64,000 nt of DNA from Macrostomum lignano. Taxonomy: Eukaryota. Positions 12,127 through 25,629 of the stretch are shown piece after piece (the stretch's first letter is position 1; every line of letters starts with the position of its first letter). The notes under the pieces are model-generated. The model did no database searches. It was not told the DNA's origin and worked only from the letters and a program-made list of their open reading frames with translations. Location: NCBI GenBank assembly GCA_002269645.1, contig NIVC01000084.1, forward strand, positions 1,054,001 to 1,118,000. The letters run 5' to 3'. The translations under genes and the position numbers were made by a program.

Positions 12127-12684
12127 CGACTTGTCCTATTAATAGTTACTGCGAGTCTGAAGCTGCGTCCGTTTGAAAAATTTGATTTAAAGCAGACCAA
12201 ACAGAAGCTACAGACCAGAAACCGGTTTTGCAAACTATTCCTAAGCCGACCAACAATGCTAAAGACAATTTATTCAAACGCAAAAATCCAACTTTATCCA
12301 GCAGGAAAACTAACTATATATGGCTGTAAATCAAATTCTCAGATAGTTTCAGTTTTACGATTTATCAACGATACTATTAATTGTGTAGATTTTGATTCAG
12401 TAAAAATTCAGAGCAGTACCTATGTCGGCTTTATTGGTCATCTTTGGCCAAAATTCGGTTTCTCTAGTCTAAAAAGATATGCAGGCTACTATTCGAATTA
12501 TCTGGTTGGATACGATGCAGAAAATTTCCCACAAGCAGTTTCTGTTAGATCAAAATCAAAACCAAGACTTTTTTGTAACATATTTTTTTCGAAAAAGTTT
12601 GTTATTATGGGCGTTCAAAACACTCATGAATTGAATAATATTCTTAACCATGTCAAGGATTTTTTAATCTCTGTTAATAACTAA
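12127..12684 (+). CDS. Divergent TATA-binding protein (TBP)-like protein, ~185 aa two-repeat core
   Basis: AKIQLYPAGKLTIYGCKS matches TBP TALIFSSGKMVCTGAKS; VKIQSSTYV matches FKIQNMVG; YDAENFPQ...KPRLFCNIFFSKKFVIMG matches YEPELFPG...KPRIVLLIFVSGKVVLTG. The frame is open 43 codons upstream of ATG 12256 (LLIVTASLKL..FDLKQ matches NIVSTVNL..LDLK), back to the acceptor at 12125-12126. Confidence 0.85.
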   Translation, partial: RLVLLIVTASLKLRPFEKFDLKQTKQKLQTRNRFCKLFLSRPTMLKTIYSNAKIQLYPAGKLTIYGCKSNSQIVSVLRFINDTINCVDFDSVKIQSSTYVGFIGHLWPKFGFSSLKRYAGYYSNYLVGYDAENFPQAVSVRSKSKPRLFCNIFFSKKFVIMGVQNTHELNNILNHVKDFLISVNN

Positions 12685-12912
12685 ACTTAACAAGTAAACA
12701 GTTGCTGTCAAATCGCAGTTGCGATGCATTATTTTACAAACATTTTGTCTTGTTTTCATTTCTTTACCAATTGTTTTCTCTAATAGTAAACGTGCCAGCT
12801 ATAACCCAATCTAACTAACCAAATCATCATTTTTCTTACAGCCGCAAATGACAAACCGGATCATCTATTAATATTATGCTCGATACGCTCGTTGTCGAGC
12901 TAGGTGCACACA

Positions 12913-13619
12913 ATGCCGCGTGCACAATGTCAAATCTGCAGAAAAAAGTTCAGCAATCAAGCTGAGCTGCATGCTCACTCGCATGGTGATTGTTTTTCGC
13001 CGGAACGATTACTGGTCGGATCACTGCAAAACCTGATCGAAAACCCACCAGATGGATGGTCCATCACTTTGCGCGAGTCAGCTCATCGTGGTCGGGTAAA
13101 TTTTGTCGAATTTACTCCCACTCTTGAACAACAAGACAGCAGCTCTGGCGAGTTACTTCCTGGCGAGTTGATTGCGTCTTTAAGAGGACTAATATTTAAA
13201 ATATTGGAAAAAATTGGCTCACCTAGTTTATTAATAAGAGTCTGCTTTCACTTGAAAGTGACACTTTTTCGACCGAAAGCAGCAGCAGACGACAACGATG
13301 GCTCGAGCAGCGAAGAAATCATCTCGGTCTATTTTAATACCAACATTGCGACAATATCATTTGATGAGACGATTGCAAACAGTGACATGCTGTTATCTCC
13401 CGAGGCCTACAATGACTGGTTCGCACGCGTTATTAATCAGCTATTAACAAAAATAGACAATTTTCAATCTCGAGGCAGTAATTGGCAATATAGAGCAATC
13501 GAGCAGCTAGACTTGATGCTCTGCATTTATCGCAAAAGCCATGCAACCACACTGTTAACAAATACGTCCCACGATGGTGTGGGAGCGGCGGCGGGGGTGG
13601 TGGTGGTGGTGGTGGTGGT

Positions 13620-13657
<38 letters not shown>

Positions 13658-16600
13658 GCGCGGCGAGTCCGGTCCAGTCCGGTCCGGTCCAGTCCGGTCC
13701 GGTCCGATTAAACAGCGAGCGTTTAAAGTTCCACTCTCAATCGGGCGCAAAGCTGGAGCAGTACTGCTTCTAAAGCCGCACAGAGCAAATCAGTACGACT
13801 GTTTTCGCTACTCAATATTGGCGAGTATATTTCATCCTTGTGTGCAAGATGCGAAAAGGAAAGACAGCTATGTGCAATGGATGAGAGAATTTAATTTTGG
13901 TCGACAAGCTAATGGACCAGCTCGCCATTCAAGTAGATCGTACAAAAAATTCTGCCGACGCAATCCGAGAGTTAGTCTACGAGTATTTGTGTGGGATCAC
14001 GACACCAAGACGAGCACATTATTTTACTCGCACAGAAGCAAATATGATGGCGATCGTTATTTTGCGAGCTGTCTGTTTGTGCCGCGGTATGACGATTTTG
14101 AATTTGGTCATTATTTACCAATTCGCAATTTGAACCGGTTATTGAGCAAGCGAGGTAAACAGCGACGATATTGTCCGGAGTGCACGGCTTCGTTTCCTTG
14201 CTCAACTTCGTGGGACTATATTCTCAAGGAGCATTGCTGTGAAGGTGGTAACGTGTCATCATCATCAGCTTCTAATATTGAATGGAGTTCGGATTTTGTG
14301 CCTCAAATCCGCGAGATTCGCCATCGACCACAAGAAGTAATGCCGAAACCAGAAGACGCAATTTTAAAATTTAAATCACACGAGGCAAAACTGCCTTCGT
14401 TGTATGTCTTGTACGCAGACATGGAATGTCTATGTGCACCTGCAAATAATGAAGCAAATGTAAAAAAGACTTGTAATTCGAAGCCGCTTGAAGTCCACGT
14501 ACCAATTTGTTTGGCCTATCGTCTGATAACTTGCCAAGGTTTGCAACTGACACCAAAACTAGCTGCAGCAGTTGGAATGGGCGACAAAAAACCTTGTGGA
14601 GTAATTTACTCGCAAAAAGATGGTGAGAATTGTGTTCGACTGTTTTTACGCAAACTTCAGACCATTGCCAGCGAGATTTGTCTGCATGCTCAGACTGAGA
14701 CGTTTACTCCCTTGCTACGTGAATATCTCAATATTAAATCCAACAAGAAGCTTCAGCAGACTTGCCAACTATGCAAGCGAGTATTTGACAAGACTGAAAA
14801 AACTGTGCTGGACCATTGTCACTTGACTGGTTTGCCTCGTGGCATAGTTTGCGTCTCGTGTAATCGAAAGTTAAGTTTAAAACGATACCGATTGATTGTC
14901 TACTTTCACAATTTGGCTGCCTACGATGGTAAATTTCTTGTGCGAGAGATTTACAACGTGTTTTCTGGAAACAGTGTTCAACTAAGCGTGCTACCAGAGA
15001 CTCGTGAACGCTTCAAGACGTTTTCGCTAAAGTTTACATTGCCAAGTAATCAACACAAGAATGGCTTTGTGCGGTTTGAGATTTGTTTCAAGGATACTTT
15101 TGCCTATTTATCGACAAGTTTGGCTACTCTAGCCGATCGACTGCTTCCCGAGCAACTAGTGCATACAAAAGAGTTGTTAAAAACGTATCCAAAGTTGGAG
15201 CTGGCAACTCTACGACAAAAGGGAATCTATCCCTACTCTTTTTTGGACTGCGAGGAAAAATTGGACAATGTGACACAGTTACCGCCGAAGGAGAATTTTT
15301 TCAACAAGCTTACAATGTCGCACTGCACGGAAGAAGATTATGGTCGAGCTTGTGTAGCTTGGAATCAGTTCGAGTGTCAAAATCTTCGAGATTATACAAC
15401 AGCCTATTTGTTGCTTGATGTACTGCTGCTATGCGACGTCTTTGAAAATTTTCGTCAGACTGCGCTGCGTGAATATGGTCTCGATCCGACTCACTTTTTG
15501 GGTGCACCGATGTTTAGCATGGTAGCCTGCCTGTTGCGGGTAGACGAGCCAATAAAATTGTTTACCGACGCATCTATGTATGCCGAAGTTGAGTCCTCCA
15601 TTCGAGGCGGTTTCAGTTTTGGAACGCGACATGTAACGACGGCCAATAACCCGAGTGTAGCAGAGTACAGAAGCGAGTTTGATCGACTTGATCCGGACTT
15701 TGAAAGCTTGCGAAAAAATGCACCATATGGAACTTATCTAGCATACTTGGACGCTAATTCGCTCTACTCAAGCTGCATGATTCAACCTTTACCAGTTGGC
15801 GATTTTTTATGGCTATCACGCGATGAAATTGGGAACATTCCAACCGATAGTGCGAGTGCAGACTATTTGGAAAGCCCAAGTGTTAAAAGTCAACTATTGG
15901 ATTGGTTAGACAAGTTTTGTAACGACGAACAAGGAGCAATGTTCACTGTGGATCTATATTATCCTCGCTTCTTGCATGACTCGACAGCAGATCTTCCGCT
16001 TGCAATTGGTCACGAATTAGTTGGCGAAGACCGACTTAGTGAACAGATGAAACTGGACTGGTTTTGCCTTCAAAGAGAACTCAATCCAGATCGTTTTGAA
16101 AACGCAACAAGCTATGGTGATGTGAAAGCTTTCAGCAGCTCGACGCGAAAATTGATTGGGTCTGTGCTTCACAAAAAGAAGTATGTTGTGCATCATCGAG
16201 CTCTTCGATTGTATCTAGAATTGGGAATGCGCGTAACGCGTGTTTACCGCGTAATTCGATTTACAGAACGACCAATTTTGCGATACTATATTGAACACAA
16301 TATTGAGCGGCGTAAAGTAGCAAAAACTGAATTCGAACGCGACTTTTTCAAGTTGCTAAATAATGCTCTTTTCGGAAAGTTTCTGCAACGAGTTCGCGAT
16401 CGACTCAATTTCCGCATGTGTTCAGAAGCTGAAAAATTGGAGAAATATGTTTCTCGAGAAGATTTTCTTGACGTAGTAATTTATAATGAAAGTCTGGCAG
16501 GAGTTAGCCTCGCTCCACGTCGTGTTGCGCTAGACAAACCGATTATAATCGGTGCTGCAATCTTAGACATTGCAAAGACTCTTGTATACGACTTTTATTA

Positions 16601-17149
16601 CAATCATGTTCAGATTCATCATTCACTAGCAAGTGCTCGGGTACTCGCAGGAGATACTGATAGTCTTATGCTGGCTCTAGTTATGCGTAAACCGGACGAG
16701 ACTCCTTACGATACCTTGTTCAAAGATTTGGCAGAAGAAGGTTTGCTAGACACGAGTAACTATTCACCATCGCATGCTCTGTACTCGACAAAGCACAAGG
16801 GTCGACTTTTGGCGTGGAAAGACGAGTTTAAAGGTTGTATACCACTGGAACTGGTATTTTTGCGACCAAAAATTACTCCTTCGTGTATGCCAATGGAACT
16901 ATAGATCAAGTCTCGCGCTGCAAAGGTGTCTGCAAGACTGTAGCACAAAGTTTAAAGCATCAAGACTATTTGAGAGTTTTGCACAAGCGACAACTTGTGT
17001 TTTCGCGCATGCAGTCGATTCGTTCTAGAAAACAGAAAGTTTTTTTAATGCAACAAAGAAAACTTGCACTAAGTTTTTTCGACACGAAGCGATCTTGGAC
17101 AGACTGCATCGATTCGCTGCCCTTTGGTCACTGGCGCTTGACCAATTAA
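12913..17149 (+). CDS. polB: Protein-primed family B DNA polymerase with N-terminal C2H2 finger and Endonuclease VII insert; two frameshifts (~13530-13705 and ~16870)
   Basis: NFQSRGSNW; YDCFRYSILASIFHP; VLYADMEC; CQLC..VLDHCHLTG..RG..C..CN; FHNLAAYDGK; KGIYPYS; YLDANSLYS; KLLNNALFGK; AGDTDS; LRPK/NYS...KGV continues in ORF 16835..17149. Confidence 0.97.
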
Positions 17150-17442
17150 CAATATGCTCTGATCTCTTTTGTTGTACAAAGTATAAATAGCATGCTATAG
17201 AAGACTGTAAGCCATCAATAGTTTTTTCATTGATCATAATTTTACAATAAATAAATGGTGCGTGCATTCATTTAATCTATAATTTTAGCACTTTTTTGTG
17301 CTTAATTATTTGAAAGAGTATAATTTTTTATAGTTAGATTCGTATGACTAGGTTGTAGTGACCGTAAATGTAATTGCTAACGCTCATGTTTCAAGGAAAA
17401 AACTTTTTTAAACTTTCAGCTACAATTGAATCGACAACATGA

Positions 17443-17918
17443 ATGCCGAGCAGCAGCAACAACAACAAGCAGCAGCAGTACCAACTTTTAGTGGAACGCC
17501 TGTACGAATCGGCAACAATTCCGGCCCGAAAAACTGTCGGCTCGATTGGTTACGATCTTTGCGCAGGCGTTGATGGCACTATTCCAGCCTACGAGTCCCG
17601 CAGTGTACGAACCGGACTTAAAGTCCGGTTACCGGCTGGTACGTATGGCAGGATTGCGGCCCGAGCATGGCTCTGCGCGGTATCTTTGTTGGCGGTGGCG
17701 TAATCGACCCCGACTATACAGGGGAAATCTGTATAGTTTTATTCAACTACAGCTCGGAGGATTTTGATTACTACGCCGGGCTAAGTATCGCGCAACTCGT
17801 TCTTGAGCAGGCTGTGCTTGCTTCAGTCTATGCGATTGAAGCCGATAACTCCATTCGGAAGATTGAGCCGCCGACCAAGCGGCGCGGTTTTGGCGGCTTT
17901 GGAAGCACTGGTCAATAA
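17443..17918 (+). CDS. dut: Trimeric dUTPase (one frameshift near 17662)
   Basis: Motifs GSIGYDL, GRIAAR, GGVIDPDYTGEI, IAQLVLE and RGFGGFGSTG split over ORFs 17443..17703 and 17667..17918. Confidence 0.93.
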
Positions 17919-17983
17919 TAATGATAATGATAATAAACTGATTTTTTTTTATTTGGTGATTGGGCACTATGCCTTGTAAATGC

Positions 17984-17992
17984 TATAAGCAA
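17984..17992 (+). promoter_or_regulatory. TATAAGCAA motif upstream of PLA2X
   Basis: 60 nt before ATG 18044; the same motif recurs before other structural-module genes. Confidence 0.6.
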
Positions 17993-18043
17993 TTTTAAAA
18001 TTTATGCCAAAAAAAAAATATATATATATATATATGTTGTAAA

Positions 18044-18463
18044 ATGTCTCCAGCGAAAGATCGAGGTTTTAAAAAGAAAAAGAAGAGCAGTCGTATAAAG
18101 AAGAAATCTATTAGAAAGATTAATAAAAAGCAACAAGGTTTTGGTGTCGTAAATTGGTTAATTAATCATTTACCATTTGAAGCGCATTTACCCGGCGGAT
18201 ATCAGTTTTGTGGTCCAGGTACGCAACTGCAAGCTAGGCTAGCAAAAGGACAACGAGGAATCAATCGACTTGACAATTTGTGCATGCTTCACGACGTGGC
18301 CTATGATAAAAATTCGGACGTGCAAGAGAGATTAAAAGCTGATAAGCTATTAGAATCTGGTGCACGAGAAATTGCCCACGATCCGTCTACTGGTTGGAAA
18401 GAAAAACTAGCTGCGAAGTTGGTTACCAAGGTTATGCAAGTTAAGCAACGCTTTGGTGCTTGA
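18044..18463 (+). CDS. Parvovirus-type phospholipase A2 (PLA2X) with basic N-terminus
   Basis: YQFCGPGT Ca-binding loop and LDNLCMLHDVAY catalytic HD motif. Confidence 0.9.
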   Translation: MSPAKDRGFKKKKKSSRIKKKSIRKINKKQQGFGVVNWLINHLPFEAHLPGGYQFCGPGTQLQARLAKGQRGINRLDNLCMLHDVAYDKNSDVQERLKADKLLESGAREIAHDPSTGWKEKLAAKLVTKVMQVKQRFGA

Positions 18464-18465
18464 AA

Positions 18466-19154
18466 ATGCAGCAGCCATACAATATGCAACTAGCTCACGA
18501 TTCTACATTTATTATTGCTGGACCTTCAAACTCGGGTAAAACTGAATGGACGTTGCGTTTGTTGACTGAACGAAAAGAATTATTTGATGAAAAACCGCGT
18601 CGTCTTGTTTGGTGTCATGGATCAAGTTTGAAACCAGACGATCAACAACGAATTAGAACATGCTGGCAAAAGAGCGGTCTTGACCCTATTGTTTTGTACC
18701 CGAATTCATACCACAGATGATTAATCGTTTTTTACCACACGATTTGGTTGTTGTTGACGACTTGCAAAGCGAGATTGCTAAGTTGCCAGAATTTACTAGT
18801 ATGTTTACAAAGCATGCGCATCATATCCCTTTGACTTGTCTGTATCTTTGTCAAGGTCTTTTTAACAAGTCTGATCCCGAAGCACGCATGCGAAGTTTAT
18901 CAGCTAGTTATATTTGTCTAACTCGTAGTGTGCGCGATCGAACCACAGTTGAGCATCTCGGTCGACAAATGTATCCGCGTAATAGTAGGTTTCTAGTGAA
19001 TGTGTATGAAGACGCAACAAATAACAAACCTTTTTCATATTTATTCATTGACCTGCGACAAATGACACCCGATTTTTTACGATTGAGAACAGGAATCTTT
19101 CCTGGCGATGAGCAAGTTGTCTATACTCGTGAATGTGATGCAAAGTTTGTGTAA
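18466..19154 (+). CDS. A32/FtsK-like genome packaging ATPase (one frameshift near 18700)
   Basis: Walker A GPSNSGKT, Walker B LVVVDDLQ, then FTKHAHH, LGRQMYP and FSYLFIDL. Confidence 0.93.
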
Positions 19155-19160
19155 TATTAT

Positions 19161-19169
19161 TATAAGCAA
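19161..19169 (+). promoter_or_regulatory. TATAAGCAA motif upstream of the minor capsid gene
   Basis: Lies right after the ATPase stop, 51 nt before ATG 19212. Confidence 0.6.
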
Positions 19170-19211
19170 ATTATAAACTGTTGTCAATATTAGTTTGTGT
19201 TTTATTTCAAA

Positions 19212-20198
19212 ATGAGTTTTTACGTTTTTTTGCCGTCAAACGATATCAGTTACGAAACCAACTCGCCTAATGAATTTCGAGTACGACTAACTGAACCAAT
19301 AAATTTATTGAACGGATTCTTCGAGGTTGCACTAGTTGAATTACTTTGCCATGGAGCAATTACGACCCCAAATGCTCATCGTGAGCGTCGATTTGAAGTT
19401 CCATATTTTGCGGACATTGACTCAATAATACGATTAAAGAAAAACTATTGGGGTCGCGTTTGGGCAGAGGCAGACTTGGATGCTTACGTTTCCTGGCAAC
19501 CGTCTGTACAAATGAAAAATTTGCCTGGCTTTTACGAAATTCAGGCGAAAAAACTATTGGATTAGAACTACCGGTTACATTTATGGACGCTTTCAAATTT
19601 GACTCTTGGAAGAAACTTTCTGGACTTGTCTCGGAAAAATTATCAAAACCTACGCTGGTAGTGTACAACCACGGATGGATCATACTTGGATGTGGTAAAA
19701 AGTCTCGACAATACTCTAGCGCTAGTACCTGAGAACTATTATGTTTTTTATTGTGTTCTATCGCCTGGTGAAGCTATACGACTTGTTTCGCATGGAGACT
19801 ATCTTCAAAAAACGGAAGGAGAAGTGTACATCAAATTACACCAATATTGGTTGAGAAATCGTATTTGGCGCATTAACAAAACCTACTTGGATGCTGTGCT
19901 ACCTTCTCCGATGCCTAGTAAAACGGTTTACATGTACTGTTACACAGACATAATCGAGTATCAAGCAGTGGGAAGTACATCAGTACCGTTGCTTCGAGTT
20001 GTGGAACTCCAACAAAAGAAAAATGGAGAACTTGTACGCGATAGCAGTGCATTGCAAACACCCTACTACTTGAAAACAAATCGACAACAAATTCACGAGA
20101 TTTCGATTCGACTATCGGACCAGCGCGGAAAACCATTTAATTTTCATCCGGGAGCACACGTTGTTGTCGTACTGCATTTTAGACACAGGTCAGACTAA
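19212..20198 (+). CDS. Minor capsid (penton-like) protein (two compensating frameshifts)
   Basis: N-terminal SFYVFLPSN..NEFRVRL..EVALVEL and C-terminal YCYTDIIEYQAVG..VPLLRVV...VVLHFR, typical of Polinton pentons; the middle is in ORF 19448..19732. Confidence 0.85.
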
Positions 20199-20200
20199 TT

Positions 20201-20209
20201 TATAAGCAA
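20201..20209 (+). promoter_or_regulatory. TATAAGCAA motif upstream of ORF 20256
   Basis: Lies right after the penton stop, 55 nt before the ATG. Confidence 0.6.
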
Positions 20210-20255
20210 AGATTAATGTGTAAAAAGAAAATTTTGTGAATTTTTTTTTGTAAGA

Positions 20256-20618
20256 ATGAACGAACTAACAGAAAAAGGAAAACGAAATGCTCGCTCATTG
20301 TGTCAGTGTGCTTTTTTACTACAAATTGTTTATCGGCTAAAGCATCCAAAGCAGAGAAAAAGTTTTTTACAAACACTTTCAGAGTCGGAGATACGATGTC
20401 TAGTAGACTTTCTGTTTAATATTATTAGTGGACGTATTAAAATTAGTAACTGTAACAAAAGACGACTTGAGAAGCATCGCAGATATATACGTCAGCTTTT
20501 GGAACAGAAGACTCCAATTACTGCAAAAAGGAAAATACTTGTCCAACACGGAGGATTTTTACCTTTTTTGGCTCCAATTATTGCCGCTCTACCTGCTATA
20601 AGCACTGCGCTTGGATAA
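20256..20618 (+). CDS. Conserved Polinton small basic virion/core protein with a QHGG|FLP protease-site-like motif
   Basis: ILVQHGGFLPFLAPII resembles the QxGG-FL motif of Polinton core proteins and adenain cleavage sites. Confidence 0.7.
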   Translation: MNELTEKGKRNARSLCQCAFLLQIVYRLKHPKQRKSFLQTLSESEIRCLVDFLFNIISGRIKISNCNKRRLEKHRRYIRQLLEQKTPITAKRKILVQHGGFLPFLAPIIAALPAISTALG

Positions 20619-20691
20619 CGTCTGGAGTAGTTGGTACCGCCGCGGGAGCAGCAAATTTAATACGATCAATTCAACGAAAGTAGTAGGAATA

Positions 20692-21380
20692 ATGCGAGCC
20701 AAGGAGAGTAGTAGTTTTCAACGAATGTATCTAGTACCTGAATCTGTGTATCAATCTACATGTCAAGGAGCAGAACAAGGTTCGTCACCAGCTGCTGAGG
20801 TACCTCGAAAAACTGAAGTTTTAGACGCACCGCAAGATGGTCTGGCAAAAAATATGGTGGAAATGAGAGAACAAATGGATAACTTGGACAAGGAAATGGA
20901 GAAGGAGCCAAATTACACAGCTCAATTGAAACGAAGCAGATTGGAAGACAAACTTTTAAAATTACGCAAAGTCTATCGCACTGGAGACGAGGACAATCTG
21001 CCACTTGTTCGCAAAGGGACTAATGTAAGAAGCTCATATGCCAGAGAATCAAGGGAAATTCCTAAAGTTTTTTACCACGTTTCGAAGCTCTCGCTCAAAA
21101 CCTATTTTCGGACATGGACAAGAATGCAGAACCAATGCTGGCTAATTTGACTGATGGCGAGATACAAGATCTCATGGAATATGTTGTTCGAGACAGACCG
21201 CTTAAGCGACACGAGACTCAACCACCTAGTGGACTAAAAACATTTTTAGACTTTCTTCGAAAACGTGGAATCGCAGCAAACCAAATCGGGCGTCATGTAC
21301 GAAACGAGCTAATGCATGCTCCAAAAACTGTTGCAAAGGAGGATCTTAGTCTGTTTGAAAATTATCAAACACTGGCTTAA
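20692..21380 (+). CDS. Conserved Polinton hypothetical protein (one frameshift near 21105)
   Basis: RMYLVPE start motif and helical body in ORF 20611..21150, continuing into ORF 21114..21380. Confidence 0.6.
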
Positions 21381-21417
21381 TTTGTTTTAAATGTTTTAAC
21401 AAAATTGATTCGAGCAC

Positions 21418-21424
21418 TATAAGC
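21418..21424 (+). promoter_or_regulatory. TATAAGC motif upstream of the small ORF and integrase
   Basis: Lies in the intergenic spacer, 61 nt before ATG 21479. Confidence 0.55.
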
Positions 21425-21478
21425 TTTTTAAAAAGGTTAATTTTGTTTATGAAAATATATAGTTTAATAAGACAAACC

Positions 21479-21667
21479 ATGTCATCTATCTGCCAAAAAC
21501 TTTTGATTCGTCTCTGTGAGTTTTTTTGCTTAAAATCCGAATGTGTGCCGTTTCTGGGAGAGGAGCACAACGAGGATACTGACGGAAATTCGATCGAGGC
21601 TTCGTTCTTTTGTTGCAATTGGCATACGAATAGCATCAATCTAACTCATGATGAAGCGAGTGCGTAA
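21479..21667 (+). CDS. Small Cys-containing ORF (62 aa) overlapping the integrase start
   Basis: The ATG sits at the same spacing from TATAAGC as in other genes; no recognisable homology. Confidence 0.35.
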   Translation: MSSICQKLLIRLCEFFCLKSECVPFLGEEHNEDTDGNSIEASFFCCNWHTNSINLTHDEASA

Positions 21668-22808
21668 GGAAATTGAAGAATTTTTGACGGATGCTTTTTT
21701 TAACTTGAACAAACCTACTTCATTTAGTGGTAACAAGACTATACTTGTTCGTGAAGTGCGTAAAAAGTTTCCACAGATTACGAACAAAGTTGCGAAGCGC
21801 GAAGTTGATAATTGGGTGCGATCAACAAATGAGCATCATTTATTTCGAAAAACACGACGAAACTTTCCAACTCCAAAAATTAGTGTACCACCAGTTGCAA
21901 AGTTTCAGTTTCAAATCGATTTGGCAGATTTACCTCGATACAAGACGGAAAATCGAGGTTATCGTTACATACTTGTTCTGATTGACTGTTTTACTAGAGT
22001 TGTACGACTAAGACCATTGCGTACAAAGAAGCCTTCAGAAGTTAGTCAAGTATTACTAGAGATTTTTCGAAGTGGTTTTAAGCCTGTTTATTTACAAGGT
22101 GATGCTGGTATGGAGTTTCTCGGAAGAGCTACACGTCAAATGCTGAAACAGGAAGGAGTTCGATTTTTTGTTAGCCAAAGCAATTACAAGGCAAGCATGG
22201 CTGAACGATTTATCCGCTCGCTAAAGGAGCGTCTATTACGATACTTTCGAGCAAAAAATTTACCTCGATGGTTTGATATTTTGCCACAATTGGAAGATAA
22301 TTTCAACTCTAGTCCTCATCGATCCTTGAGTGGAGAAACACCAAAACGTGTAGAGACAGACCCACATTTACAAGGAATTTTGTGGGACAAAATGTTTGCG
22401 AAGTCGTACACTAAAAAGAATGAGAATAAATTTAAAGTTGGTGATTGGGTTAGAATTACACGACGTCGAGGAACATTTGAAAAAGGATACACTACGAGTT
22501 GGAGTAATTCAAAATATCGCATTCACCGTGTACACTTGACAGAACCGCCAATGTACGAATTAGCGGACCCTGAAGATGGATTTGAAGTGCTGAAAGGAAG
22601 GTTTAACCAAGCGGAACTAATGTTGGTAAACGAGACAGATGAAACACCTAATGAAATTGAAAAAGTTATTGAAACTGATCGATCGAAAAATGGAAGTCGT
22701 CTGTATCTAGTAAAATGGAAAGGTATGCCAATCTCAAGAAGTCAGTGGTTAAACGAAAAGGATCTTGACGCAAAGACTGCTAAACTATTTTCTAAAGTGT
22801 ATAAGTAA
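21648..22808 (+). CDS. Retroviral-like DDE integrase with C-terminal chromodomain
   Basis: FQIDLADL, YILVLIDCFTR, LQGDAGMEF, KASMAERFIRSLKERL; chromodomain IEKVI...YLVKWKG...SQW; intact ORF. Confidence 0.97.
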   Translation: MMKRVRKEIEEFLTDAFFNLNKPTSFSGNKTILVREVRKKFPQITNKVAKREVDNWVRSTNEHHLFRKTRRNFPTPKISVPPVAKFQFQIDLADLPRYKTENRGYRYILVLIDCFTRVVRLRPLRTKKPSEVSQVLLEIFRSGFKPVYLQGDAGMEFLGRATRQMLKQEGVRFFVSQSNYKASMAERFIRSLKERLLRYFRAKNLPRWFDILPQLEDNFNSSPHRSLSGETPKRVETDPHLQGILWDKMFAKSYTKKNENKFKVGDWVRITRRRGTFEKGYTTSWSNSKYRIHRVHLTEPPMYELADPEDGFEVLKGRFNQAELMLVNETDETPNEIEKVIETDRSKNGSRLYLVKWKGMPISRSQWLNEKDLDAKTAKLFSKVYK

Positions 22809-22849
22809 CACATGAATTGGGATTGCATGACGATGAGAAGACTGTTGAA

Positions 22850-23308
22850 ATGGATCCTATTTTTGCTTTTTATTCTGGTCCGAATAGATCTGCTGAAGGT
22901 GGAGGTGGATCTGGCATTCCTGTTTACGAAGGTTACGGTTTTTTGTCAAATTTGGCGGACAGATTGGTGTATCCTGTACTACGCAACGCAAAGAAAGATT
23001 TCTTGGATCGTGGTCTGGAGTATTTGAAAAGTGCGACAGCAAAAATTGGTATGGGTCGGAAGCGTCACTTGGACACAGAATCGAGCGAAGAGATGTTTAA
23101 TACACCTGCAGTCTCGAGACCAAAGCGAAGGAAAAGAACCAGTGGAGTGGCTATAAGCTTAGGAAAGAAGAAACGACAAAAGAAACGACGAACAAGACAG
23201 TGTGGAAAAGGACGCGTGAACAAACGAAAACGCAAGAGGGTAGGTGGTAAAAGAAAACGTCGAACTGCTACTGCAAGCAAGAAACTTTTTAGTCTGTTTG
23301 AAAAGTAG
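22850..23308 (+). CDS. Arg/Lys-rich core (DNA-condensing) protein upstream of the MCP
   Basis: GSGIPVYEGYGFL motif followed by a long basic tract; conserved position before the MCP in Polintons. Confidence 0.7.
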   Translation: MDPIFAFYSGPNRSAEGGGGSGIPVYEGYGFLSNLADRLVYPVLRNAKKDFLDRGLEYLKSATAKIGMGRKRHLDTESSEEMFNTPAVSRPKRRKRTSGVAISLGKKKRQKKRRTRQCGKGRVNKRKRKRVGGKRKRRTATASKKLFSLFEK

Positions 23309-23309
23309 C

Positions 23310-24632
23310 ATGAATCATTTGCTTGGACCTGATATTGCTGCTCTTAAAAGTGAATTGTCGCTATTTGATCAAAGTCCTGTTCAGTTTAGTGTTTTGGATA
23401 ATCGGTATACTAACATTCAACCGCAACATGGTATTACAAAAGGATCACCTATCGAATTTGAGGTTGTGCCTGCAGGCGATTTGTATTTGGATCTACAAGA
23501 AACTGTGCTCACGGTATGCTTCAGCGTTAGTGATAGTGAAGGTGAACCTATAGATGCAACAAAAAATTTTGTTTGTTTGAATAATTTGGCTATTGGAACA
23601 TTGTTTGAAGACGTTCAATTTACTATTGGCGATACTGTAGTTGAAGGTGGTAGTTTTATGTATCCATACAAGGCTATGCTTCTTACATTACTGGAATACG
23701 GACATACAGCTCAGAAGGCTGGTTTACTACCGTGGGGATTTTACAAGGATACAGCTGGTAAAATGAATGCAACAAGTGAAAACGATGGACGAACAAAGAG
23801 GCAGGCGCTTATTGCTAACAATAGGCGGTGCACTGTATCGGGGCCGTTATTCTTGGATTTGTTTCGTCAGCCTCGGTATCTACTATCAAAGACACCACTG
23901 CGGATCAAGCTCATACCGGCAAAAAGTAAATTTGTCCTGAGCGGGTCAACATTAGAAGCTGGTGCGGTATTAAAAGACTATGAGATCAAGTTTTTGCGTG
24001 CAGAACTACGATTGCGGTTTGTTCAACCCTCGCCGAGTGTTATCAGTGCACATGCTCATGGACTTAAAAGTCACAATGCATTATATCCGCACCGAAGTCT
24101 AAGCCTTGGTACGTTTACTATACCCCGAGGATCGTCTAGCCATACGCATGAAAATTTGTTTCCTAGTGGAGTACCACGGCTTTTATTGATGGCAATCGTA
24201 AGCAACAAGGCATTCAATGGAAGCATGGACACTAATCCGTTCAACTTTGAGCATGCAAATGTGAGCAGCATTGGTGTGTTTGTGAATGGAGACTCGGTAC
24301 CATCGCGTCCGCTGCAGACAAACTTTGGAGATGATTGTGTGACAGAGTATAATTTTTTGCTACAACAGCTTGGAATCTATCTACAGGGACGAGATATTGG
24401 ATTTAATATGCTGGATTACGGTAATGGTTACTCAATTTTTGCATTCAGTCTTGGAAGTGAACCTGGTGTCGGACGAGGAGTGCAACTGTATAAGGAAGGA
24501 AATGTAAAACTAGAGTTACGCTTCAATGCTGCAACTAGTACCGTGTACAACGTCATATTTGGAGGTATATTTGACAAGCAACTGCAACTGACTGAACTTC
24601 GCGACATTGTTCCTGGCACAGTATGGAAGTAA
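23310..24632 (+). CDS. Major capsid protein (double jelly-roll)
   Basis: KSELSLF..P.Q, PIEFEV, YLDLQET, GPLFLDLFRQPRYL and NPFNFEH; intact ORF. Confidence 0.95.
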   Translation: MNHLLGPDIAALKSELSLFDQSPVQFSVLDNRYTNIQPQHGITKGSPIEFEVVPAGDLYLDLQETVLTVCFSVSDSEGEPIDATKNFVCLNNLAIGTLFEDVQFTIGDTVVEGGSFMYPYKAMLLTLLEYGHTAQKAGLLPWGFYKDTAGKMNATSENDGRTKRQALIANNRRCTVSGPLFLDLFRQPRYLLSKTPLRIKLIPAKSKFVLSGSTLEAGAVLKDYEIKFLRAELRLRFVQPSPSVISAHAHGLKSHNALYPHRSLSLGTFTIPRGSSSHTHENLFPSGVPRLLLMAIVSNKAFNGSMDTNPFNFEHANVSSIGVFVNGDSVPSRPLQTNFGDDCVTEYNFLLQQLGIYLQGRDIGFNMLDYGNGYSIFAFSLGSEPGVGRGVQLYKEGNVKLELRFNAATSTVYNVIFGGIFDKQLQLTELRDIVPGTVWK

Positions 24633-25186
24633 TTGATTCTATCCTAGATCGTGGAGTAACAGATCGCTTCCTTCGCAATGTTGTATCGAAATTGTGCGCA
24701 CATTTTTTAAATGTTGTATTTCTTGGTGTTTTTCCTCAAAACTTTGTTGGTGGACTTAGACGCTTACCTTTAGACGGTAAAGACTATTTTTTTATCGTTA
24801 ATACTGACGTCTCTAACCTGCCCGGAAAACATTGGGTATGCGTTTGGGTTTATGGTCATCGAGCAGGTCGCGGTAGCAAACGACTTGGTGAATATTTTGA
24901 TTCTCTTGGTCTAGTACCATTGCCAAGAATAGCAAAATGGCTAGGAAAAGAATGTGGAAATTCGAAAAATTGGTGTTATAGTCGCTTTGCTATCCAAGAC
25001 CCGCAGAGTGGAAGTTGTGGATTTTGGGTAATTTTTTATATTTTTCATAAGTTGACTACCAGAGGAAACCTAGAGTGTTTTATTCGAAGCGTTTTTAAAC
25101 GGAATATAATTCGCACTGGTTCGTTTCGATACTTGTATGGTAAATTACGCAATTTTGTTTTACGAGTGCTGCCTCAATATTTGTAA
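24623..25186 (+). CDS. Adenain-like (C5) cysteine maturation protease
   Basis: FLGVFP, IVNTD...GKHWV, YFDSLG, Q...SGSCG; intact ORF. Confidence 0.95.
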   Translation: MEVIDSILDRGVTDRFLRNVVSKLCAHFLNVVFLGVFPQNFVGGLRRLPLDGKDYFFIVNTDVSNLPGKHWVCVWVYGHRAGRGSKRLGEYFDSLGLVPLPRIAKWLGKECGNSKNWCYSRFAIQDPQSGSCGFWVIFYIFHKLTTRGNLECFIRSVFKRNIIRTGSFRYLYGKLRNFVLRVLPQYL

Positions 25187-25422
25187 ACTCGCTAATTTGT
25201 GCGTCAAATTGTGTTTATATCTAGTTGAAATATACAATATACTGCTTGAAAAGAAGAATTTAAATGCGTTAAGTTATACGTGAAATAAGCTTTGTGTCAA
25301 ATTGAATTTTGGTTGGGCTTGTAATTAGCAGCATTCATTGCGGATAGAATTTAGGTGGATAGACAGGTGTTTGCGTAAAAGTGATTCAGCTAATTGGTTA
25401 ATTCATTGCGTAAAAGCTAGTT

Positions 25423-25526
25423 TGCGTGCACGGCAAATTTCAGACTCTGCCATTTTTTTGGGCCTGTACTTACTATGTATTTCGCCATAAGGAAATCGGC
25501 TTTGTGTCAAAAAAACGTATACTACT
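25423..25526 (-). repeat. Right terminal inverted repeat
   Basis: Ends ...ACGTATACTACT; inverted copy of 5945-6048. Confidence 0.97.
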
Positions 25527-25629
25527 GACATCGGCAGAAGACGCTGACTCCAGCTGCTGGCCCCGAGGAGCCGGACTGGGCGAGCGTGGCCGACTGCCTT
25601 CAGCAGGAGGTGAAGGACGTTGAGAAGCT
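25527..25629 (+). pseudogene. Exon-like GC-rich segment abutting the right TIR, apparently truncated
   Basis: Open frame HRQKTLTPAAGPEEPDWASVADCLQQEVKDVEK ends at a GTGAGT donor (25630); no acceptor or ATG before the TIR. Confidence 0.45.

Follow-up and report, generated by a model that had tools for sequence, protein, structure and literature searches.

A divergent TATA-binding protein exon and a TATAAG box before virion genes in a Polinton of Macrostomum lignano

Two questions about animal Polintons are whether they are active viruses and how they could time their capsid genes without an RNA polymerase of their own or a helper virus. The locus described here bears on these questions. In the window, a stretch of 64,000 nucleotides of Macrostomum lignano DNA (contig NIVC01000084.1), a Polinton/adintovirus element carries an open frame ahead of its protein-primed DNA polymerase B (pPolB) gene, and the first-pass annotation of the sequence had read this frame as a divergent TATA-binding protein (TBP). 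A TBP encoded by the element itself and matched to a late box would be a concrete mechanism and, if true, evidence that animal Polintons run an autonomous nuclear programme; it is testable in a laboratory flatworm in which the element is transcribed and present in many near-identical copies. We therefore asked what the frame encodes, how it could be translated, and which promoters it might serve.

The element and its TBP-like exon

The genes and ends around the exon place it in a Polinton, as first proposed. Inverted repeats of 108 nt with 95% identity (5941-6048 and 25423-25530) and AGTAGT ends provide the terminal repeats expected of a Polinton/Maverick (adintovirus), and the element carries both pPolB (PF03175, E 6e-20) and a retroviral-like integrase (PF00665, E 5e-8), the pair by which Polintons are recognized. 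The integrase match (rve) is accompanied by a chromodomain, and the other Pfam matches were a PLA2-like domain and protein X (E 6e-5). The P-loop and C5 protease matches of the packaging genes fell below the Pfam cut-off, and the same gene set recurs in metagenomic loci. The capsid and penton labels are ones that we take from the usual Polinton layout. No 6-bp target-site duplication was found around the window copy, the flanks at 5939-5944 and 25527-25532 being different, and given this the copy may be recombined or mis-assembled. The ATPase, the penton, and the ORF at 20692 are split across frames in this copy, the splits in neighbouring genes being either mutations or assembly errors, and the TBP frame is intact. 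The left arm also holds degenerate tandem repeats at 9250-9956 and 6587-6838 (units of about 37 nt and 28 nt). The features are collected in Table 1.

Table 1. Features of the Polinton element, in positions of the window
Feature	Position	Strand	Description
Polinton/adintovirus element	5945..25526	+	19.6 kb; identified genes all on +; ends AGTAGT...ACTACT
TATAAA box, canonical	10605..10610	+	86 nt 5' of the replication block's first gene; putative early promoter
Upstream gene, two exons	10691-10998, 11089-11917 (10691..11917)	+	378 aa, disordered tail; SSB-like by position
Putative phase-0 splice donor GTRAGY	11777..11782	+	inside the upstream gene; would splice codon 332 onto the TBP exon, removing 350 nt
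Splice acceptor	12100..12126	+	AG behind a pyrimidine tract, leading in frame into TBP codon 1
TBP-like exon	12127..12684	+	185 codons, stop to stop; two-lobed saddle; Pfam, PDB profile, AlphaFold2, and structural matches
TBP-like exon, residues (yeast-equivalent numbering)			kept F190, P191, F207, E188; E186D; F116Y; lost F99, N69, N159; invariant L114Q, L205N
Spliced-leader acceptor of pPolB transcript	12840..12841	+	23-nt loose end in one X10 contig
Protein-primed DNA polymerase B (pPolB)	12913..17149	+	split over three frames in the window copy
Virion/packaging block	18044..25186	+	PLA2X, ATPase, putative penton, protein X, integrase, putative major capsid, protease
Eight TATAAG boxes	17984, 19161, 20201, 20597, 21418, 22800, 23152, 24489 (17984..24494)	+	putative late promoters

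The identity of the exon was assessed by profile and structure searches. The frame matched PF00352 in two stretches (E 2e-7; 31.2 bits, the cut-off being 22.9), and a profile built from eight frames related to it, A1, matched 35 PDB sequences, every one of them a TBP or a TBP fusion. The 185 residues were modelled by AlphaFold2 with a pLDDT of 89.5 and a pTM of 0.57. When this model was searched with Foldseek, a TBP-containing entry stood in each row listed (ranks 1 to 44), and VIA-align superposed 164-168 of its residues on 38 TBP entries at Z 13.3-15.5, the next fold following at Z 8.2. In the Atlas, the nearest TBP clusters scored 0.94-0.97 and were mostly viral. The two tandem repeats that form the saddle of the PF00352 family are present both in the Pfam alignment and in the model, and the frame thus encodes, far above chance, a divergent TBP fold, in agreement with the two saddle halves first aligned by eye. 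Compared with cellular TBP (PF00352; yeast 1YTB, human 1CDW, and the host copy L052), the saddle matches over 185 residues (Z about 15, rmsd 3.6), whereas the Polinton TBP has about 20% identity, lacks a start codon of its own, and is not sister to host TBP or to its TRF2-like paralogue.

To compare residues, yeast-equivalent positions were assigned through the host TBP, the structural register placing model residues 1-185 on yeast residues 66-239, and nine clade rows (six families and three database relatives) were tabulated. The list of DNA-contact positions consists in part of residues that we take to be contacts, the remainder coming from PMC12529657 and PMC7221094. In the second lobe, Phe190, Pro191, Phe207, and Glu188 are invariant in all nine rows, as are basic residues at 196 and 201. 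Position 186 is Asp in the six families and Asn in the three database relatives, and the C-terminal stirrup accordingly reads D-x-E in 6/6 genomic families and N-x-E in the relatives; the exon thus carries both of the stirrup acids, which are TFIIB-contact residues in the account of PMC7221094. The canonical set of four intercalating phenylalanines (99, 116, 190, and 207) is reduced to the last two: Phe116 is Tyr, and Phe99 is gone in 9/9 rows, with Arg-Pro at 98-99 in the window and R/K-P across the clade. Neither of the two canonical central asparagines is present, Asn69 being Leu or Gln in the eight rows that cover it and Asn159 being Ser or Thr. The substitutions L114Q, V122T, V161T, and L205N are invariant in the clade, and Thr124 and Thr215 are also replaced.

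These residues largely match what the first-pass annotation had described. The motifs it named (ENFP, NIFF, and the Tyr) were found as stated, and so were the acids of the stirrup; the loss of Phe99 from the first repeat had escaped it, and the first central Asn, replaced on either alignment, falls by the structural register on L4 (VLLI) and not on its LLIV. The pattern implies a C-terminal lobe and TFIIB stirrup that have been kept and an N-terminal DNA face rebuilt with fixed polar substitutions. From sequence and model together, we infer that the exon encodes a functional, remodelled TBP, in which the loss of Phe99 and the change of Phe116 to Tyr could weaken DNA binding.

Copies, selection, and relatives of the exon

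A genome search with the TBP frame returned 83 matches from 96 scored candidates. Full-length matches at 99-100% numbered 26, the window's included, and other matches include diverged families at 32-46%; the presence of the frame in other copies, on which the original proposal depended, is thus documented by 26 full-length genomic copies and five divergent families. The frame is open in 26/26 full-length copies, which represent five haplotypes, the commonest differing from the window by five synonymous and two non-synonymous codons. When the six families A-F were compared, dN/dS was 0.17 (B-C), 0.25 (A-C), 0.27 (A-D), and 0.19 (A-B, near saturation), A-E and A-F being saturated, and the close pair B31-B36 gave 0.50 on 16 changes. 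By these codon comparisons, the TBP exon is under purifying selection. A deoxynucleoside kinase gene lies directly 3' of the exon in families B, D, E, and F (L031:2602-3300, L032, L033, and L034:1240-2646), and in family F it is read in one frame with the exon; the family of the window has no kinase gene.

Searching the genome with the Pfam TBP model gave 330 candidates, of which 150 were scored and all 150 exceeded the cut-off. The sampled loci comprised host TBP, a TRF2-like gene, and otherwise mostly a second Polinton clade, plus a third TBP-like type (L066:2-532, Pfam E 3.5e-18). The TRF2-like paralogue (L053) lacks three of the four intercalating phenylalanines (T99, R116, H190). Clade 2 has a very high copy number (L054-L063, L065, L067, L069, L119, and L120) and differs in layout: its TBP has its own ATG, keeps Asn69, has an E-x-E stirrup, and closes the virion block behind an exonuclease-like gene, pPolB being encoded on the other strand. 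In this clade, pPolB is adjacent in 5/5 long loci, and integrase, capsid, and ATPase are adjacent in 2/2. One clade-2 gene (L120:630-1355) has a weak PC4 coactivator match below cut-off (E 8e-5). A PC4 identity was also considered for the genes upstream of metagenomic TBPs and rejected, as they had no Pfam match.

Beyond this genome, the A1 profile was run against 1.84 billion representatives and gave four close relatives (E <1e-30, on short contigs) and 165 matches to 1e-3, among them a broad family sharing a Y-x-G-R-P-x-M-L first stirrup. A metagenome scan with this broad family identified 44 loci. Polinton hallmark genes accompany the TBP in many of them: at least one in 27/44, at least two in 15/44, and one in 19 of the 21 loci over 3 kb. 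Judged by this gene context, TBP-like genes are widespread Polinton cargo. Narrower queries gave little: a single-sequence word search with the TBP frame found no relative among 35 candidates, the clade profile found one protein and no locus in metagenome or viral contigs, and neither P0158 nor the wider alignment found anything in the viral contigs.

Phylogenetic analysis used 39 rows, a subset of 89, and the resulting tree is one in which long branches meet and which contains no named nucleocytovirus TBP. Clade 1, to which the window belongs, had support of 100/99 and joined eight metagenomic Polinton rows and two context-free rows at 100/98. Recent capture from host TBP or from the TRF2-like paralogue was rejected, the corresponding groupings having AU p values of 0.0016 and 0.0004, both subject to the long-branch warning for these 39 rows. 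A single origin of all Polinton TBPs received 65/47, and clade 1 plus clade 2 had p 0.198, in the same long-branched tree, values that neither establish nor reject it.

The gene had been thought undescribed in Polintons, which does not hold in full: the Fig. 5 legend of Starrett et al. 2021 (PMC8502044) lists a TBP-like gene in the map of a related MELD virus. As here, the carrier of that gene is a midsize linear dsDNA virus or element and has a PolB of adintovirus type; what the legend offers is a label, without analysis of residues, splicing, or promoters. A literature search, covering sources other than subscription journals, found no analysis of a Polinton TBP, a TATAAG late box, or Polinton trans-splicing, and a term look-up found no mention of TBP in PMC11071308, PMC11131425, PMC11296320, or PMC12220804. 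Four things appear to be new in the present locus: how broad the family is, how unequally the two lobes have been remodelled, a TATAAG box specific to the clade, and a start that depends on splicing.

A frame without a start codon

The exon had been described as an ORF lying between the gene for an SSB (a protein that binds single-stranded DNA) and that for pPolB. It does precede pPolB and it is open for 185 codons. However, its only ATG is codon 44, inside lobe 1, whereas structural homology begins at residue 1, and its first codon comes directly after a splice acceptor, so that it is no stand-alone ORF. Met44 was discarded as the initiator, as a start there would remove strand 1 and helix 1 of lobe 1 in the model. 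The SSB identity of the upstream gene was not confirmed. Its protein had no Pfam, PHROG, or PDB sequence match, and its model (pLDDT 47) had no meaningful fold match; its Atlas neighbours are viral clusters at a weak 0.91-0.93, one with DUF2738 in 10% of members. The SSB-like label comes from position and these neighbours.

The splice signals around the exon are conserved. The acceptor stands at the start of the TBP frame in 29/30 family-A loci and is exact in 16/22 further loci spanning families B-F, two of the others being indel-shifted and four lacking the 5' part. In a single copy of family E, an in-frame ATG stands 11 codons 5' of the frame; two sibling copies have not kept it in frame. 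Within the upstream gene, the GTRAGY donor is found in phase 0 in 6/6 families, a count that does not equal six independent trials as the families share ancestry, and lies 259-618 nt 5' of the acceptor. Its codons form K-x-L-V-S, the sole invariant island of the upstream protein's disordered tail; as background, 15/53 other Val-Ser pairs in these elements are coded as GTRAGY. A weak donor at the upstream gene's stop was discarded, being out of phase with the TBP exon.

Contigs from four runs from four studies (4/24 listed), whose RNA nature is guessed, were examined for these junctions; such contigs drop rare forms, and their uncovered parts are uninformative. The GT..AG joint that removes 90 nt within the upstream gene was present in 3/4 of these RNA-like runs. 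Neither the junction from the donor to 12127 nor that from the leader to 12127 was seen in the contigs of the four runs, and contigs of X1 and X7 run across the TBP acceptor unspliced. At the pPolB acceptor, the loose end in the X10 contig is the 3' part of the published M. lignano spliced leader, which is 35 nt long and ends in ATG (PMC8629364). The leader sequence before GT occurs 33 times in the genome, against 0 for the control. The leader on the pPolB contig implies that the element is transcribed and trans-spliced. In having closely spaced same-strand genes with a leader at an internal acceptor, here that of pPolB, the arrangement resembles flatworm spliced-leader operons as described in PMC8629364 and PMC9851317; it differs from them in belonging to a virus-like element and in that no leader was seen on the TBP exon in the four RNA-like runs.

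The missing ATG, the conserved acceptor, and the in-phase donor together point to translation either as a spliced fusion or from a spliced-leader AUG. Most likely, and with slightly better than even confidence, alternative cis-splicing would fuse the exon to residues 1-332 of the upstream protein and so allow its translation, a route favoured because the TBP exon has no ATG. A possible but more doubtful route, which may coexist with the fusion, is trans-splicing to the host leader, whose 3'-terminal AUG would initiate a free TBP of 186 residues. The acceptor is in phase 0 exactly at the start of homology and the leader ends in ATG, as published; the leader is joined to the next gene, pPolB; and PMC9851317 describes flatworm initiation from leader AUGs. 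The pPolB frame of family D appears to begin at an acceptor, where the window has an ATG, and, by a loose upstream window, a Met of their own was present in the 24 TBP frames examined from metagenomic Polintons. Against this route, no leader was seen at 12127 in the four RNA-like runs, and the conserved in-phase donor lies a short way upstream, a configuration in which acceptors tend toward cis-splicing according to PMC8629364.

Other splice signals were noted in the element. A leader AUG at the pPolB acceptor of the window would open a 10-codon frame at 12842-12871 ahead of the pPolB ATG at 12913, possibly a translational brake. A strong acceptor-like site lies at 17419, just 5' of the dUTPase gene, and others lie at 6579-6663, which suggests further spliced or trans-spliced genes.

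TATAAG boxes and a candidate late-promoter factor

The first-pass annotation had hinted at TATAAG as a target, and this hexamer does mark the virion genes of the element. All eight plus-strand TATAAG sites sit 50-230 nt 5' of eight of the nine starts in the late block, with none before 17984; in order, they precede PLA2X, the putative penton, protein X, ORF 20692, the integrase, ORF 22850, the putative major capsid, and the protease. TATAAG ranked first of the 1322 hexamers with at least six copies in the element, in a ranking that used a window of 40-240 nt set after the sites had been seen. In the late blocks of five of the six families (A, B, D, E, and F), TATAAG occurs 36 times on the plus strand and once on the minus strand; the expected number was 12.2, and 200 shuffles gave at most 23. 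The box stands before penton, protein X, and capsid in 5/5 families, before PLA2X, integrase, and ORF 22850 in 4/5, before the protease in 3/5, and before the ATPase and ORF 20692 in 1/5. By contrast with this late box, TATAAA or TATATAA lies 5' of the first, upstream gene in all six families.

Other origins of the motif were considered. Four of the eight window sites fall in the coding end of the preceding gene, and the protease site, present in 3/5 families, may be a codon effect. A role as poly(A) signal is unlikely, as the capsid site lies inside the coding sequence of the previous gene. In two clade-2 late blocks examined in the same genome, TATAAG was unsystematic (three sites and one), from which it is not a host-wide habit. 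Among TBP-bearing metagenomic Polintons, L089 and L101 have a near-canonical TATAAACA-like box before most genes and L072-L083 have no obvious box before most genes. The view that TATAAG is a motif of Polintons in general, or of the host, was therefore rejected. A TATA-variant box confined to late genes is a mark of the herpesvirus-type late system; here, TATAAG marks the virion-block genes of five families, which would be the late ones. The box common to the capsid and packaging genes suggests a built-in early-to-late transcription switch.

Our proposal, to which we give an even chance, is that the viral TBP acts as the late-promoter factor of the element and uses host TFIIB. Host TBP would start one early unit (upstream gene, TBP exon, and pPolB) at the canonical TATA box, and splicing would resolve this unit and yield the viral TBP. 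Its C-terminal lobe would then grip the 5' half of the TATA box and dock TFIIB, while the rebuilt N-terminal lobe would read the 3' half and accept TATAAG(C/T)A. So rebuilt, the protein could bring host TFIIB and Pol II to the capsid, packaging, and integrase genes. The orientation of the two lobes on a TATA box is otherwise general background. The proline of the second lobe favours T at TATA position 1 (PMC12529657), which would turn the conserved lobe toward the unchanged half of TATAAG. A broader proposal, put forward tentatively and with more doubt than belief, is that an ancient and widespread Polinton TBP family provides a self-encoded early-to-late cascade, which here has co-evolved with TATAAG, relies on host TFIIB, has given up its start codon, and is made by alternative splicing alone, through the fusion, the leader AUG, or both, so that splicing would time the switch. 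Such a protein would be a minimal natural altered-specificity TBP, and the element would be a virus-like one that ties a transcription factor to host splicing.

Two viral systems offer comparison. KSHV ORF24 is the late-gene TBP mimic of beta- and gammaherpesviruses and serves TATTWAA promoters (PMC12529657). Like the protein described here, it has a viral TBP fold with a polar DNA face (here Q114 and N205), and the proposed target is a variant TATA box ahead of late genes. In the description of PMC12529657, however, ORF24 has several domains and itself binds Pol II, keeps all four phenylalanines, has no TFIIB acids, and depends on five further viral factors, whereas the Polinton TBP is a minimal core of 185 residues that keeps these acids, and no such factors were detected. 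None of the marks of a herpesvirus-type viral TBP, that is, a Pol II-binding N-terminal domain, an extra DNA-binding CTD, viral activators, and loss of the TFIIB acids, was found. The TBP-like proteins of Nucleocytoviricota are also divergent viral TBPs, and the nearest Atlas clusters and viral fold matches are largely from nucleocytoviruses. These usually have diverged TFIIB-contact residues and a TFIIB of their own (PMC7221094, in whose main text Polinton and Maverick are unmentioned); the Polinton TBP, in contrast, keeps the acids, and no TFIIB gene was found among the 24 frames of the element or on its contig.

Three other roles have to be weighed against that of a late-promoter factor. 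The protein might have lost useful DNA binding and serve as a decoy or repressor, sequestering TFIIB or Brf or blocking promoters and so damping host or early viral transcription. The stirrup acids are indeed its best-kept surface, and Phe99, Asn69, Asn159, Thr124, and Thr215 are all replaced; yet the replacements are themselves invariant (Q114, Y116, T122, T161, and N205), which suits a new specificity better than decay, and the clade-specific TATAAG would be left unexplained, so that we consider this role unlikely. We think it still less probable that the saddle works in replication or packaging and takes no part in transcription start, bending or tethering AT-rich viral DNA for pPolB as a fusion with a protein that binds single-stranded DNA. 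The conserved in-phase donor, the location ahead of pPolB, and the extension of the family-F frame into the deoxynucleoside kinase would suit such a function, and a divergent Giardia TBP binds single-stranded DNA (PMC12209930). It gives no reason, however, for the TFIIB-contact acids to persist, the TBP gene of other Polintons starts at an ATG of its own and stands at a distance from pPolB, and the upstream partner is not confirmed as an SSB.

The TBP might lastly be a generic booster, a regulation-resistant substitute with broad TATA preference, TATAAG being a weak box that host TBP also reads; we rate this as improbable as the replication role. Host-regulator surfaces are generally missing from viral TBPs, as PMC7221094 reports, and the near-canonical boxes of L089 and L101 would agree with a broad preference. 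The Foldseek rows of the exon also include 1qn5, a wild-type TBP on a G(-26) TATA variant, which we take to be a TATAAG-type box, and from this host TBP might suffice for TATAAG. What speaks against the booster is that G at position 6 is strict in the 36 sites, in families whose capsids are 66-81% identical, against TATAAA or TATATAA at the early gene.
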